From Patescibacteria group bacterium (GTDB lineage Bacteria > Patescibacteriota > Patescibacteriia > Patescibacteriales > JBAZCA01): a DNA stretch of 64,000 nucleotides. The notes under the pieces were generated by a model. It was given only the letters and a program-made list of their open reading frames with translations, was not told the origin of the DNA and made no database searches. Position 1 is the stretch's first letter. Every line of letters begins with the position of its first letter. Shown here in pieces: positions 13,717-49,439 of the stretch. The position numbers and the translations under genes were made by a program. The DNA lies in assembly GCA_041661505.1 (NCBI GenBank), contig JBAZUF010000001.1, positions 241,576-305,575 of the forward strand. Direction: 5' to 3'.

Positions 13717-15012
13717 TTACCTTTCCCAGCGGGTATATTCAAGTTCGGCCAGCTCTACGGCCTTTTCCAAAGAGCCAAAGTGTTTTTTGTAGGTTGCGGG
13801 GGAAGAACACTTCCCTGTTTTAAAAGCTTTAATAATTTTTTTTGGGGACAAACACTCCTCTCCTAAGCCTCTTAATCTATCAAGCAGCTGTATGTCGGTT
13901 ATTATCCTCCTTCCGGTATATTTCAAACCTGCGGCCTCAACAGCTTTTGCGAGAGTGCCAAAACGTGCCCAGAAGGTCGTCGTCGACAAGCAATCGCCGC
14001 GGCTGGCAGCTTCTTGAATTTCCTTACTCGACAAAGCCTCACCGTCTTTAGACAATCCTCGCAACAAGTCAAGCAGATAATTGTCTGAATACGGTATTTT
14101 TCCACGTCTGATCTTATTAAGTTCCAGCCCAGCTTCTTTCTGTGCTTTAGTTAAGGATTCAAAAAGGCGGAAGTAAGTACGCGTGCAGGGAATATCCTTT
14201 CCTTGAATGTGCGCATTATCAATATCGCAGTAGGTAGGAGTCCTCCCCAGTTCACTTGCTAGTTTTTGAAGTTTTTCTTTGGCTCCTTCGACGGTGATTC
14301 TTGGGACGGTGATTCTTGGACTGGAAACTCCTGCGATTTCTTTCGCTATGGACAACGAGCCAAAACATCTATAAAACGCACGAAGACTGGCGCCCTTTCC
14401 TTCTTTAGACATTTGCACTAGATCGTGAGTATCAGGCGCTCGACCCAAATCTTCCTTCATCTTTTTAAGTTGGCTGATAAGCTCCTCGGGAGAGTAGATT
14501 ATCAAATGGATAGGAGTCAATCCCGCAGCCTTTTGGGCGGCCGTCAACGATCCGAAAGCCAAAATCACTGTTGGTAAGCTAACACAGCCCCATTTTAAGT
14601 GGGCTCTATTGATATCCGAGCTGGAAGGAGTCCTCCAGAGCCGAAGAAAAAGAAAAATTAATTCCGCGATTATGGTTTCGCGGGAATAAATCTTTTCCTG
14701 CTCGTTCCTTCCGCTTTTTCCCTTCCTCGGCTTAGGTGATTTTAGAAGTTCCCGGCGAGCCTGGTCTGCGACTAGCGCCCGTTCAGAGTCAACAATTGCT
14801 TGGGGCTCTCCTTTCTGTCTTTCATCCGTCAAACATTTCTTAATAGCCGCTTTCACTCTTTTTTCTAATTTGGCCCTGGGACAAAATCCTGAAACTGGTC
14901 GGCCATTTGGAAGAGTGAAAGGCAGGGTGTAAAAAGCATAAGCGCGGTCAATTTCATACTTAACCAGCACAGCCAATCCATCCACATCATAAGAGATTTC
15001 TTTTATTTTCAT
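13717..15012 (-). CDS. Protein with a short unknown N-domain followed by five homing-endonuclease-associated repeats (HEAR-like), with no nuclease domain recognised
   Basis: 431 aa with five units of about 57 aa following the pattern Y/T-S-x-E-x-L-x3-L…GR-x-P…F-x3-FGSL-x2-A-x3-AGL. Examples are FYRCFGSLSIAKEIAGV and YKKHFGSLEKAVELAEL. Confidence 0.75.
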   Translation of the reverse strand: MKIKEISYDVDGLAVLVKYEIDRAYAFYTLPFTLPNGRPVSGFCPRAKLEKRVKAAIKKCLTDERQKGEPQAIVDSERALVADQARRELLKSPKPRKGKSGRNEQEKIYSRETIIAELIFLFLRLWRTPSSSDINRAHLKWGCVSLPTVILAFGSLTAAQKAAGLTPIHLIIYSPEELISQLKKMKEDLGRAPDTHDLVQMSKEGKGASLRAFYRCFGSLSIAKEIAGVSSPRITVPRITVEGAKEKLQKLASELGRTPTYCDIDNAHIQGKDIPCTRTYFRLFESLTKAQKEAGLELNKIRRGKIPYSDNYLLDLLRGLSKDGEALSSKEIQEAASRGDCLSTTTFWARFGTLAKAVEAAGLKYTGRRIITDIQLLDRLRGLGEECLSPKKIIKAFKTGKCSSPATYKKHFGSLEKAVELAELEYTRWER

Positions 15013-15173
15013 ATTCCCCTCGATTTGAATGCAAAAAATTTAGAAATCTTAAGCGGGAAAAATTCCCATCTTTTATTTAAAGAACAATATTAATACTACT
15101 GCTATTAGCTAAGCTAAATGGCGAAAAAGTAGTTTCTACTTTTAACATATCTTTATTAATAAGTCAAAAATAA

Positions 15174-15202
15174 TTGACAACTACTACATATTAATGTATA
15201 AA
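15174..15202 (+). promoter_or_regulatory. Sigma70-like promoter for typA
   Basis: TTGACA (15174-15179), 17-nt spacer, TATAAA (15197-15202). Confidence 0.55.
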
Positions 15203-15304
15203 TGACTTACCTGCCACTGGGCAGATTTTTATTTTATATGCAAATAAGAAACATTGCCATTATCCGCCTTCGCTTACGCTACGGCGGACAAGTCGCCAAT
15301 ACAT

Positions 15305-17125
15305 ATGGAAATTAGGAACATCGCTATAATAGCCCACGTTGACCACGGGAAAACCACCCTTACCGACGCGCTGATGCAGCAAACCGGCATGGCGCAAAAA
15401 GGAGTCTCGATGGATTCAAACGCCCTGGAACTGGAGCGCGGCATTACAATTTACTCGAAAAATACTTCGGTCTACTTTAAGGACACGAAAATTAATATCG
15501 TTGATACGCCCGGCCACGCCGATTTCGGTTCTGAAGTCGAGCGGGTTTTGCGTTCCATTGATTCGGTTTTACTCGTCGTTGACGCCCAGGAAGGCCCGAT
15601 GCCCCAGACTAAATTTGTTTTAAAAAAGTCTCTCGAGCTCGGATTAAAGCCGATCGTGGTAATTAATAAAATTGACAAACCGGCCGCCCGGCCCGAAGAG
15701 GTCGAAGAAATGGTTTATGAATTGTTTTTGGATTTGGGGGCGAGTGACGCACAGCTGGATTTTACCACCATCTACGCTATTGCCCGGGAAGGAATCGCCA
15801 AGGCAAAGCTTGAAGACGATTCAAAAAATTTGACCCCGCTTTTGGACGCGATTTTAAAGCTGGTTCCGGTCGCTTCAAGCGAAAAAGCCGATTCCCAGCC
15901 GCTTCGCATGCAGCCTTTTAATTTAGCTTATGATAATTTTTTGGGGCGCCTGGCTATCGGAAGAATTTACGAAGGCATAGTTAAAAGCGGGCAGAGCGTC
16001 CTAATAAGGCACGCCGGCAAAGACAACCGCACCGGAAAAATTACCAAGCTTTTTACTTTTGAGGGCCTAGAACGAAAAGAAGTCGGCGAAGCCAAAGCCG
16101 GAGACATTGTTATGATCGCGGGGCTCACGGACATCTTTATCGGCGAAACAATTTGCGAAAACGATGCCCAGGAAATCTTACCGGCGATTAACATTGACGC
16201 TCCGACTATCTCCTTAAATTTCATGGTCAACAATTCTACTTTCGCGGGCCAAGACGGAAAATATGTTACCAACCGGCAGATTAAAGAGCGCCTGGAAAAA
16301 GAACTGGAAGTTAACGTCGGACTAAAAATCGATTTTTCCCGCGCCGATTACTACAAAGTTTTCGGCCGCGGCGAAATGCATATCGCTATCTTACTCGAAA
16401 ACATGCGCCGGGAAGGTTATGAGCTCCAAATTTCCCAGCCCCACGTAATTATCAAAGAAAAGGACGGCGTTAAGCTTGAGCCGTATGAAGAGGTAACAAT
16501 TAACGTCCCGAACGACATGTCCGGCGCGGTGATTGAAAAGCTTTCCAAGCGGCGCGGCAACATGATGGAAATGAAGCCAGAGCACGGCAATACGCGGATT
16601 ATTTTTGAAATCCCGACCCGGGGGCTTTTGGGCTACCGAAACGAATTCGTCATCGATACCCGCGGCGAAGGGATAATGTACACCCGGGTAATCGGCTTTA
16701 AACCGCACGCCGGTGAAATTAAAAAGCACGAATCCGGCTCCATGATTTCCATGGCCACCGGCAAAGCTTTAGGGTTTTCTTTATTTAACCTCCAAGAGCG
16801 CGGCGCGTTATATATCGGCGCCAATACCGAAGTTTACGAAGGCATGGTAATCGGGAACGTTTCCAAGGGCACTGACTTAAGGGTCAACCCGACCAAAGGA
16901 AAACAGCTTACCAATATGCGCGCTTCGGGTTCGGACGAAGCTATTCGGTTAACCACGCCGATTGAGATGACCTTGGAAAAAGGCATGGGCATAATGAAAA
17001 GCGACGAGTACTTGGAAATTACTCCGAAAAATATCCGCATGAGAAAAAAATACTTAACCGAAAACGAGAAAATCAAAGCCGAAAAAGAAAAGAAAGCCCG
17101 AGAAAAGTCGAAAAACAATACTTAA
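15305..17125 (+). CDS. typA: Translational GTPase TypA/BipA
   Basis: [27 protein letters not shown] and NKID, with full-length BipA colinearity. I prefer the ATG at 15305 over the track's TTG start at 15254. Confidence 0.95.
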
Positions 17126-22286: not shown

Positions 22287-23369
22287 TTACTCGCCTATAT
22301 CGCTCTTTTTTCCATTCCGATTAAAGATTACCACTATAACAAGCATTAGTAAAAATAAAATCCCGAGCGCCAAGACTTTTCCTTGGCTTTGTAAAAATAG
22401 CGCCGAAAGCCCAAAGGCGGCCGAAAGAAAATAATAAATTAAAACGGTTTTTCTTTGCCCCAGGCCCGAATCAAAAAGCCGGTAGTGGAGATGGAGCCGG
22501 TCGGAAAATCGGAAAGGATTTTTTCCGGCTTTAATTCTCCGGATAATCGCCCAGGCGACGTCCAGTATTGGGATGCCAAGGATTAAAAGGGCGATCGCGA
22601 TTTTTCCGCCGGAGATTATTGCGAGGACGCCGAGGGCATATCCTAAAAAGAGCGACCCGCCTTCGCCTAAAAAAATCTTAGCCGGATGCCAGTTTAAGAT
22701 TAAAAAACCTAAACAGGCGGCCGACAATATAAGCGCCGCCAGTCCGACGTCAGGCTGGTAGTACTTAGTCGTCATGGTAAAAAGGAAAATTATAAAAGCG
22801 CCGATAGCCGTTACGCCGGTAACCAGGCCGTCTAAACCGTCTAAAATTTTTGTCGTATACATCATGCCCATAAGCCAAAGGAGTACAAAGGTGTCGGAAA
22901 TAAAAACAAAATAATGCATTTTTCCGCTCCAGGCCAGAAGCGGTATTTTCCATTGGTCGAGGTATAGGAGGCCGCCTAAAGGATTGGTAATTTTTTCAAT
23001 CCCGACTCCGCCGGCGATTACCGCGAGCGCGGCGAGTACGGGAAAAATAATTTGCTTACCCGGGCTCAAATTGTATTTATCATCCAAAAATCCGCCGAGC
23101 ATCAGTATGCAAGCGCCAATAAAAAATCCGATCCAATGGTGCGCCGCTAAATTTCCGGCTAACAATTTATTCTGCACTAAAAAAAGCCCGATAAAAAAAG
23201 CGAAAAAAATCGCCGTCCCGCCTAAAAGCGGAACCGCGACTTGGTGGACTTTTCTTCCGGTTGCCGGCAGATCAACAACGCCCAGCCTCAATGCCAGGCG
23301 CTTTACCAAAAGGGCGCCGGCGGCGGACAGTAAAAAAGCGGCGGCGAATATTTCAAAATAAAATTGCAT
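22287..23369 (-). CDS. Glycosyltransferase family 4 polyprenyl-phosphate sugar-1-phosphate transferase (MraY/WecA family)
   Basis: 360 aa, polytopic, with motifs GGFLDDKYNLSP, ILDGLDGL and LGEGGS. Confidence 0.85.
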   Translation of the reverse strand: MQFYFEIFAAAFLLSAAGALLVKRLALRLGVVDLPATGRKVHQVAVPLLGGTAIFFAFFIGLFLVQNKLLAGNLAAHHWIGFFIGACILMLGGFLDDKYNLSPGKQIIFPVLAALAVIAGGVGIEKITNPLGGLLYLDQWKIPLLAWSGKMHYFVFISDTFVLLWLMGMMYTTKILDGLDGLVTGVTAIGAFIIFLFTMTTKYYQPDVGLAALILSAACLGFLILNWHPAKIFLGEGGSLFLGYALGVLAIISGGKIAIALLILGIPILDVAWAIIRRIKAGKNPFRFSDRLHLHYRLFDSGLGQRKTVLIYYFLSAAFGLSALFLQSQGKVLALGILFLLMLVIVVIFNRNGKKSDIGE

Positions 23370-40187: not shown

Positions 40188-40212
40188 TGTTTTGTTTTAA
40201 TGGCTATCCGCT

Positions 40213-40242
40213 TTGACATAGCGGGTTTTTTTATCCTATAAT
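40213..40242 (+). promoter_or_regulatory. Near-consensus sigma70 promoter for the tRNA-Gly/tRNA-Thr pair
   Basis: TTGACA (40213-40218), 18-nt spacer, TATAAT (40237-40242). Confidence 0.55.
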
Positions 40243-48551: not shown

Positions 48552-49439
48552 TTACCATGACCCGCTTGATCCGCCCCCGCCCGAGCTTCCGCCGCCGAAT
48601 CCGCCGAATCCCCCTCCCCAGCCGCCCCTGCCGCCGAATCCGCCGCCGGCCCACCACGGGATGCGGCTTCCTAATTTTTTACTTTTGCTAAAAGAGGAGG
48701 AAACCGCGTAGTCAAAAAGCAGCCCCAGGGCGGAAAGAATCCCGATAGAAATTAAGCCAAAAAATAAAAATCCTTTAAAGACGGTAATTACAATTCCGAT
48801 AACTGCGCCGATTATTCCTCCAAGCCACCAGGATTTGCTCCTGGCCAAGATGCTGGCCAGCCAGCTAAAAACGATGAAAATGAGGAATATTAAAAATTCA
48901 ATTGTATCGCCGTTAATTTTACTAAAAATTGATTTTTTTTCAGCCGAAGCTGAAGGAATTACCCCGCCTTTAGCGGCGGCGATTATTTTATCAACTGCGC
49001 CATCGAAGCCCATAAAATATTTTTCACTTCTGAAGGCCGGCTTCATTATATCGTTAATAATCCAGCTTGTTTGCGCGTCGGTCAAATTTCCTTCCAGTCC
49101 ATAACCGACCTCAATTCTCATTTTCCGATCATTAATAGCTGCCAATACCAATACTCCGTTATCTTTTCCTTTTTCACCGATTCCCCATTCACTAAATAGC
49201 TCTGACGCGTAATTTTCGATCGAGTCGCCATCCAGGCTTTTTATAGTTACGACGGCGATTTCGTTTCCGGTTTCTTTTTTGAAGCTATCGAGCTTGGTTT
49301 CAAGCGCTCCTTTATCGCCTAAAACTCCGGCAAAATCATTAACCAAGCCACTCGGCTTTCCGGGGCTGGAATAGGCTAGAACCGGCAGGGCTAGAACCAA
49401 AAATATTACGAGGCTAATTAATAACCTTGGGCATTTCAT
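48552..49439 (-). CDS. TPM-domain (YgcG-like) protein with C-terminal TM helices and a Gly-rich tail
   Basis: 295 aa with a signal peptide, V(N)DFAGVL…EIAVVTI…GYGLEG, and the tail GGGFGGRGGWGGGFGGFGGGSSGGGGSSGSW. Confidence 0.85.
   Translation of the reverse strand: MKCPRLLISLVIFLVLALPVLAYSSPGKPSGLVNDFAGVLGDKGALETKLDSFKKETGNEIAVVTIKSLDGDSIENYASELFSEWGIGEKGKDNGVLVLAAINDRKMRIEVGYGLEGNLTDAQTSWIINDIMKPAFRSEKYFMGFDGAVDKIIAAAKGGVIPSASAEKKSIFSKINGDTIEFLIFLIFIVFSWLASILARSKSWWLGGIIGAVIGIVITVFKGFLFFGLISIGILSALGLLFDYAVSSSFSKSKKLGSRIPWWAGGGFGGRGGWGGGFGGFGGGSSGGGGSSGSW

Follow-up and report, generated by a model that had tools for sequence, protein, structure and literature searches.

Within a stretch of 64,000 nucleotides (nt) of the Patescibacteria group bacterium contig JBAZUF010000001.1 (positions 241,576-305,575, forward strand), which we refer to as the window, we have analysed the 5' end of typA (bipA), a gene encoding a translational GTPase. 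The organism is an uncultured member of the Patescibacteria and its TypA is 100% identical to P0001, a protein from a Patescibacteria metagenome-assembled genome annotated as 'translational GTPase TypA [Patescibacteria group bacterium]'. At this locus, the first nine codons of the gene are found twice, once at the functional start and once 67 nt further upstream, where they open a short upstream open reading frame (uORF). The two copies are embedded in the following features, numbered by their position in the window:

15174-15203, plus strand: typA promoter TTGACA-N17-TATAAAT, read from the sequence
15211-15224, plus strand: leader hairpin 1, CTGCC-ACTG-GGCAG (-8.2 kcal/mol, z = -2.7), flagged as terminator-like together with the U-run
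15225-15237, plus strand: U-rich tract after hairpin 1, directly 5' of the upstream ATG
15238-15264, plus strand: upstream copy of typA codons 1-9 (MQIRNIAII), ATGCAAATAAGAAACATTGCCATTATC, sharing 20/27 nt with 15305-15331
15238-15315, plus strand: uORF of 25 codons, out of frame with typA, whose stop codon TAG (15313-15315) overlaps typA codons 3-4
15254-15256, plus strand: TTG within the upstream copy, in frame with typA and used by one pipeline as its start (623-residue product)
15263-15288, plus strand: hairpin 2, UCCGCC...GGCGGA, without U-run (-12.1 kcal/mol, z = -2.9), starting at the junction between upstream copy and spacer
15265-15304, plus strand: 40-nt spacer between the copies, 57.5% GC, unique in the window
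15305-15331, plus strand: functional start copy (MEIRNIAII), ATGGAAATTAGGAACATCGCTATAATA, with the atypical synonymous codons ATT, AGG, GCT, ATA and ATA
15305-17125, plus strand: typA/bipA, translational GTPase of 606 residues (Pfam GTP_EFTU, GTP_EFTU_D2, EFG_C and BipA_C)
13717-15012, minus strand: divergent neighbour encoding a 431-residue HNH_repeat protein (Pfam PF18780)

The duplicated start of typA

The resemblance between both copies reaches 2 nt beyond the shared codons in the 5' direction ('AT' before each ATG). The copies align ATG to ATG and 8 of the 9 encoded residues are identical. Their seven differences, at positions 4, 9, 12, 18, 21, 24 and 27, comprise six synonymous changes at third positions and a single replacement (Q versus E), and placing at least six of seven differences at third positions has a binomial p of ~0.007 (calculated by hand). 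A match of at least 20/27 within 150 nt upstream was encountered at 5.5e-4 of sampled positions, and in a survey of 638 candidate starts of open reading frames of at least 100 codons (counted from stop to stop) in the window, typA was the sole case reaching this level. Match rate, uniqueness among the candidate starts, register and third-position pattern together exclude chance, which settles the concern, voiced in a preliminary description of the locus, that the similarity might vanish under proper alignment statistics. The same description had listed the similarity with its positions and pattern of differences, the out-of-frame uORF ending beyond the typA ATG, the promoter, the 5'-proximal hairpin with its U-run and the CCGCC…GGCGG hairpin, and we recovered all of them, the hairpins also upon folding. 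The promoter was missed by a simple scanner, which expects the sixth base of the -10 hexamer to be T.

Since the same sequence is present in an independent assembly in ENA and, up to position 15292, in two Logan assemblies, the duplicated start is not an assembly artefact. Logan builds its assemblies on a de Bruijn graph (k=31) simplified by Minia3 and reports a contig only if it is linked to another one (PMC12424806). The two matching contigs (SRR18595301_304043 and SRR6484324_261450, the ends of L041 and L042) stem from different runs and both terminate at 15292, and such a shared end in k=31 contigs implies a fork of the assembly graph inside the 67-nt block. A fork at this place is expected if a second sequence shares position 15263 onward but differs at or before 15262 (15262 + 30 = 15292), and it possibly reflects a structural polymorphism with a breakpoint within 2 nt of the boundary between copy and spacer.

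The arrangement is also an annotation trap, as pipelines disagree on the length of the protein. Gene calls in ENA and Logan start at the TTG at 15254 and predict 623 residues, whereas NCBI starts at 15305 and predicts 606. The 17-residue N-terminal extension of the longer call was found in no homologue in our homologue searches, and the protein cluster of this call has only 2 members.

Hairpin 2 has a mutually exclusive alternative, in which its GGCGG segment (15283-15287) pairs with UCGCC (15293-15297) at -6.7 kcal/mol. The stem is of the type CCGC[CT]T..[AG]GCGG, which is found 9 times in the window where ~1 occurrence would be expected. This roughly ninefold enrichment was observed for hairpins of the form CCGC[CT]T-N3-18-[AG]GCGG, with examples at 22924-22943, 40208-40224 and 48964-48979, and they probably constitute the usual terminator stem of the genome.

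Comparison with the typA starts of relatives

The comparison covers 38 related typA loci taken from metagenomes and genomes, whose TypA identity is 68-89% apart from a single outlier at 47%, and two further loci added on the basis of odd N-termini. Codon states at the start were compared with 30 distinct relatives and the GC content of 5' untranslated regions (UTRs) with 37; in this portion of typA, no relative is closer than L015. In a typical relative, a promoter TTGAC(A/T)-N17-TATAAAT is followed by ~40 nt containing the box AATTTAAAGC and, after 5-9 nt, by an invariant CCGCTTT-loop-(A/G)GCGG hairpin and by UUUUAAUUUU, which stands directly before an ATG that lacks a Shine-Dalgarno sequence. 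The promoter type is shared by L004, L011, L014, L015, L016 and L020. The source genome itself seems to rely little on Shine-Dalgarno sequences, judged by the occurrence of similar 4-mers at 7/60 first ATGs of long open reading frames compared to a background of 7.6%, and starts in the window sit within AU-rich stretches.

When the window is viewed against this organization, it is the upstream copy that occupies the place of a typA start. In most relatives, hairpin and U-run lie 0-15 nt before the typA ATG, a place that is taken by the upstream copy in the window, with hairpin 1 beginning 8 nt past the -10 box. At 25/27 nt, the upstream copy agrees with the typA starts of L001, L011, L012, L014 and L029, and its peptide MQIRNIAII also opens the TypA of L012 and P0202. 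Its mean match to the starts of relatives is 23.0/27 compared to 21.0/27 for the functional start, and the mean identity at third positions is 0.65 for the upstream copy, 0.29 for the functional start and 0.43 for codons 10-60. With respect to L015, the addition diverges differently from its flanks, since, in a small sample, 6/8 third positions are identical in the upstream copy and 2/8 in the functional start, compared to a fraction of 0.72 in codons 10-60; given the latter, 2/8 or fewer would occur with a probability of ~0.008 (calculated by hand). Neither AGG at codon 4 nor ATA at codon 8 of the functional start is found in any of the 30 relatives. The spacer, at 57.5% GC, exceeds the range of 7-53% in the -40 to -1 region of all 37 relatives and the 32.5% in the 40 nt preceding the upstream copy. 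Finally, removal of the 67 nt in silico (15265-15331), which joins the upstream copy to 15332, produces a natural TypA N-terminus as in L012 and P0202; whether deleting the offset restores a continuous ancestral start had been posed as a test in the preliminary description.

Its position after promoter, hairpin and U-run, the codon choices it shares with relatives, the GC-rich spacer behind it and the restored N-terminus lead us to read the upstream copy, from comparison of sequences, as most likely the ancestral, displaced start of typA, and the 67 nt of spacer and nine recoded codons as the addition. This reverses the polarity initially assumed, in which the upstream copy was an imported decoy: it is the functional start and the spacer that are atypical. 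As a separate observation, the odd synonymous states of the functional start form a perfect palindrome, GCTAT-A-ATAGC (15321-15331), which contains TATAAT.

The leader found in the relatives may be of interest in its own right. It was identified in L004:2931-3000, L006:2935-3000, L011:2941-3000, L020:2941-3000, L032:2941-3000 and 16 others (alignment A1). Pairing is conceivable between AAAGC of its box and GCTTT in the hairpin's 5' arm, which would give a possible antiterminator/terminator pair. A covariance model of the leader (R1) matches only regions upstream of typA in 191 kb of sequence from relatives, which score 31-78 bits, and recovered L046, a locus outside of the training set, at 42 bits. 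The motif matches no family in Rfam 15. We thus describe it as a candidate for an uncatalogued cis-regulatory element in Patescibacteria. The window leader scores 12 bits against R1 with its hairpin unaligned, and neither of its two hairpins is recognised, so that only the architecture of hairpin, U-run and ATG is held in common. In L045, the architecture is retained with a different stem. Gene callers sometimes read the leader as an N-terminal 'SGFNF' extension. In one clade (L023, L024, L026 and L027), an AT-rich insertion of ~100 nt lies between the leader hairpin and the typA ATG, placing the U-run ~104-111 nt from the latter; here AGG is found just before the ATG as a possible Shine-Dalgarno-like element.

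Proposed origin of the additional 67 nucleotides and possible use of the old start

The finding is a real, lineage-specific scar of the duplication type and not a conserved regulatory device. We interpret the locus as two tandem typA 5' modules left by a rearrangement in this lineage that proceeded via recombination with a diverged typA 5' end, an interpretation in which our confidence and our doubt are about balanced. Module 1 (15174-15264), with promoter, hairpin 1, U-run and the ATG with its nine codons, would represent the ancestral initiation region, cut after codon 9. Module 2 (15265-15331), consisting of the GC-rich 40-nt spacer led by hairpin 2 and of an ATG with nine recoded codons, would have been contributed most likely by a diverged typA 5' end, and would now provide the functional start and join the remainder of the gene at codon 10. 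The left joint ATTATC|CGCC would have formed by illegitimate recombination at the level of microhomology, the right one by homologous pairing in the highly conserved coding stretch of the G1 motif, GCCCACGTTGACCACGG, which would place the process among homology-facilitated or short-patch illegitimate recombination events. Such recombination would explain why the synonymous excess is confined to nine codons, why the spacer is GC-rich and why a hairpin of the terminator type without U-run stands at its left edge. Further points in its favour are the independent displaced start of L028 described below, the end of both Logan contigs where a fork at the junction of copy and spacer would fall, and the context of the upstream ATG, which resembles the usual starts of this Shine-Dalgarno-poor genome. 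Of the readings given in the preliminary description, a recombination or insertion scar with a diverged second typA 5' end is retained as the best supported, while the polarity, the link to homing and a conserved regulatory uORF are not supported.

Several points weigh against this interpretation. The argument from synonymous sites comprises 8 sites only, and AGG and ATA are not rare in the genome, where they account for 16% of Arg and 22% of Ile codons, so that the functional start does not look foreign in composition. Hairpin 1 is unmatched by the model of the canonical leader (at the 12 bits given above), and the 'canonical position' of the upstream copy is thus one of architecture and not of sequence homology. 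No donor for spacer and start was found, as the spacer has no match in the window or in 46 fetched loci except for chance 10-12-mers, and a closer relative, whether carrying the insertion or lacking it, is absent from the collections searched. A sliding comparison along the body of typA gave no clear mosaic signal. The break in the Logan contigs could equally result from a variant at 15293. The predicted opening energy is 4.1 kcal/mol at the second AUG and 6.6 kcal/mol at the first, and the second is thus at least as accessible. Lastly, the 40 nt before each copy are identical at 16/40 positions in register (p = 0.014-0.026), which a plain tandem duplication would predict as well.

Further attempts to trace the addition gave no signal. 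In gapped alignments of the spacer with UTRs of relatives, the best p of 0.04 (L002) is not significant over ~37 tests, and an initial impression that the spacer shares TCGCTTACGC with L001 and L002 was dropped for this reason. Nor did the similarity of the upstream copy continue significantly into the spacer when the latter was compared with typA codons 10-30 of the window and of 37 relatives. Codon usage is uninformative as a sign of foreign origin, and neither it nor the sliding comparison along typA tells recombination from duplication.

The principal alternative is a tandem duplication in situ of the 67-bp unit 15198-15264, reaching from the last nucleotides of the -10 box over hairpin 1 and the U-run to codon 9, followed by divergence of the second copy. 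Its internal -10 box and terminator-like U-run would have been lost through selection while synonymous changes accrued in the new start. The repeat indeed shows an exact period of 67 nt with the gene resuming right after the second copy, the identities in the non-coding halves include CTTAC at the same offset, and the differences cluster where a second -10 box and U-run would do harm. Small tandem duplications at a typA start are exemplified by the 9-nt repeat of L046 described below, and the codons of the functional start fit the usage of the genome. Against these points stands the divergence between the copies, which agree at 2/8 synonymous sites whereas the adjoining codons agree with L015 at 0.72, even though L015 carries no duplication; a duplication in situ after the split from L015 should have left the copies less diverged. 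Moreover, the spacer would have had to gain ~25 GC points within an AT-rich UTR, the 5' arm of hairpin 2 would have had to arise de novo from a -10 box, and a gapped alignment of the non-coding halves gives a p of ~0.24. On balance, we consider this origin possible but rather unlikely.

In a further scenario, the upstream block of HNH_repeat gene, promoter and first copy would have arrived by a homing-type or other insertion with co-conversion, leaving spacer and downstream start as the resident parts. The preliminary description had characterized the neighbouring gene as built from homing-endonuclease-associated repeats, and Pfam identifies HNH_repeat as the only domain, with ~120 N-terminal residues remaining without assignment and a match to PHROG 22655, a family of unknown function. 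The protein is orphan-like, since its homologues are all distant and the best of them is 33% identical, and the Logan break, if it represents an in-branch of the graph, would fit a co-occurring allele devoid of the upstream block. Conversely, searches in Pfam, PHROGs and PDB sequences revealed no nuclease domain in the neighbour (with weak repeat-protein noise in PDB), its GC content is ordinary and equal to that of its surroundings, and none of the 38 related loci has an HNH_repeat homologue beside typA. The promoter type TTGACA-N17-TATAAAT is common to the closest relatives L015 and L016, the far greater divergence of the supposedly resident first nine codons from L015 than that of codons 10-60 would be left unexplained, and homing yields precise replacement instead of duplication. 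A homing link of the neighbour to the duplicated start is thus unsupported, and we regard the import of the upstream block as improbable.

Irrespective of how the addition arose, the old start may still be used. The context of the upstream ATG, uuuuauuuuauAUG, is AU-rich and free of a Shine-Dalgarno sequence, resembling the usual starts of the genome, and with this native context ribosomes would probably still load at the old AUG, read the 25 codons of the uORF across hairpin 2 and stop at the UAG 6 nt beyond the typA AUG. TypA synthesis would then depend on termination-reinitiation, on direct initiation at the second AUG or on both. A distance of 6 nt between stop and start is within the range of bacterial termination-reinitiation, and the geometry of the uORF would permit translational coupling. 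With the opening energies given above, by which the second AUG is predicted to be no less accessible than the first, coupling would not be required and direct initiation is just as possible; the proposal that RNA accessibility reveals a dependence of the second AUG on coupling is unsupported.

The uORF may still affect expression in this lineage, and one could go further and regard it as a selected regulatory leader peptide, whose translation or stalling tunes typA and in which the two exclusive hairpins (15263-15288 and 15283-15297) act as a switch. Its native initiation context, its end close behind the typA AUG and the existence of alternative hairpins (-12.1 versus -6.7 kcal/mol) are consistent with such a role, as is the change from ATA to ATT at typA codon 3, which creates its stop codon TAG, and the ATGA overlap of stop and start in L028 described below. 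In contrast to the conserved regulatory uORF that had initially been considered, none of the ~30 distinct related typA loci contains it (L028 being an independent and different case), and its peptide has no homologue among 1.84 billion representative proteins. The fold of the whole leader is unremarkable (z = -0.56), and for an open frame across the spacer with a nearby stop the chance is not small, at ~0.1 by a hand estimate. In Rfam searches, the window leader (15000-15450) gave only matches at chance level, and the leaders of 12 relatives no family. We therefore find a selected regulatory function doubtful. Chance resemblance in an AT-rich intergenic region, for which only the shortness of the 27-nt repeat would speak, is refuted by match rate, register, third-position pattern and residue identity and has a negligible probability.

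Recurrent change at typA starts and comparison with known systems

Two other loci illustrate that small rearrangements recur at the start of typA. L028, a metagenome contig (46-125), is an independent analogue of the displaced start. Behind its canonical leader and ATGGAAATAAGAAC lies an insert of 52 nt, with a hairpin of -11.3 kcal/mol, CTCCGCTTTTAGCGGAG, at its front and the 10-nt direct repeat GAAATAAGAA on either side. A new ATG stands in frame at position 96, and a 17-codon uORF from the old start ends with a TGA overlapping the new ATG as ATGA. In L046 (655-690), a 9-nt tandem repeat, AATTTTATG, generates two in-frame ATGs, and the protein P0100 reads ...SGFNFMNFMEIRN. In both larger cases, the window and L028, the frame of the old start terminates on the new one. 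One might speculate that short, hairpin-led and self-complementing cassettes repeatedly insert at the 5' end of Patescibacteria typA genes, where they land among the first codons and carry or generate a new start, the old one becoming a coupled uORF. The window allele would then still be structurally polymorphic in natural populations, in keeping with the graph fork in two independent runs, and such cassettes might spread or persist by splitting or recoding a conserved nuclease target, as proposed for the insert in T4 gene 60; we give this idea very little credence. The locus shows how an essential conserved gene can survive rearrangement inside its first codons, with the displaced start kept as a uORF that stops on the new one. 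Of more general use are the recurrence of such rearrangements and the uncatalogued leader motif, the latter possibly with wider relevance than the scar.

A rescue of this kind has a parallel in SXT/R391 elements, which integrate into the 5' end of prfC and supply a new promoter and 5' coding end. In both cases, a gene for a translational GTPase is disrupted close to its 5' end and stays functional through a replacement start in the inserted DNA. Unlike prfC, the typA locus contains no integrase, element body or identical cores of the att type, and an SXT-like integration was rejected in view of the missing recombinase-bearing element body and the 40 nt between the copies. The tandem duplication in L046 shares with the window a head-to-tail repeat that includes the start codon, but in the window the synonymous divergence between the copies is that of distant alleles, and the non-coding halves differ by 25 GC points.

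T4 gene 60 carries a 50-nt coding gap and the mobE cassette (bioRxiv 10.1101/2022.08.31.505936; PMC2988022) and resembles the window in that a short insert, bordered on its 5' side by a hairpin, lies in a conserved essential gene, with homing-endonuclease-related sequences nearby. Its translational bypass depends on take-off and landing codons that match, on a stop codon following take-off and on an extended signal in the nascent peptide; the window has none of these. We thus rejected bypassing, for which the take-off codon would be ATC (15262-15264) and the landing codon ATA before GCC CAC, with CGC as next codon after take-off and a peptide of 9 residues; with a second AUG present, it would also be unnecessary.

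In bacterial systems of translational coupling, termination-reinitiation proceeds at overlapping stop and start codons (reviewed in PMC5972666). The window and L028 resemble these systems in the short distance between the stop of the uORF and the downstream AUG; in the window the stop lies 6 nt past this AUG, and in L028 the two overlap as ATGA. Unlike in such systems, the upstream cistron is the amputated start of the same gene instead of a gene of its own, and coupling is here deduced from the arrangement.

Related scars have been described for homology-facilitated illegitimate recombination in E. coli conjugation (PMC3240628) and for the effector/immunity arrays of the type VI secretion system in Vibrio cholerae, where displaced gene ends are left behind (PMC5361080). 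As in these cases, one end of the addition in the window would be anchored in conserved sequence and the other joined illegitimately, with a remnant of the resident gene end persisting beside the incoming copy. The scar at typA differs in that its patch is only ~67 nt long and in that the remnant is the start of a gene, which could be translated as a uORF.

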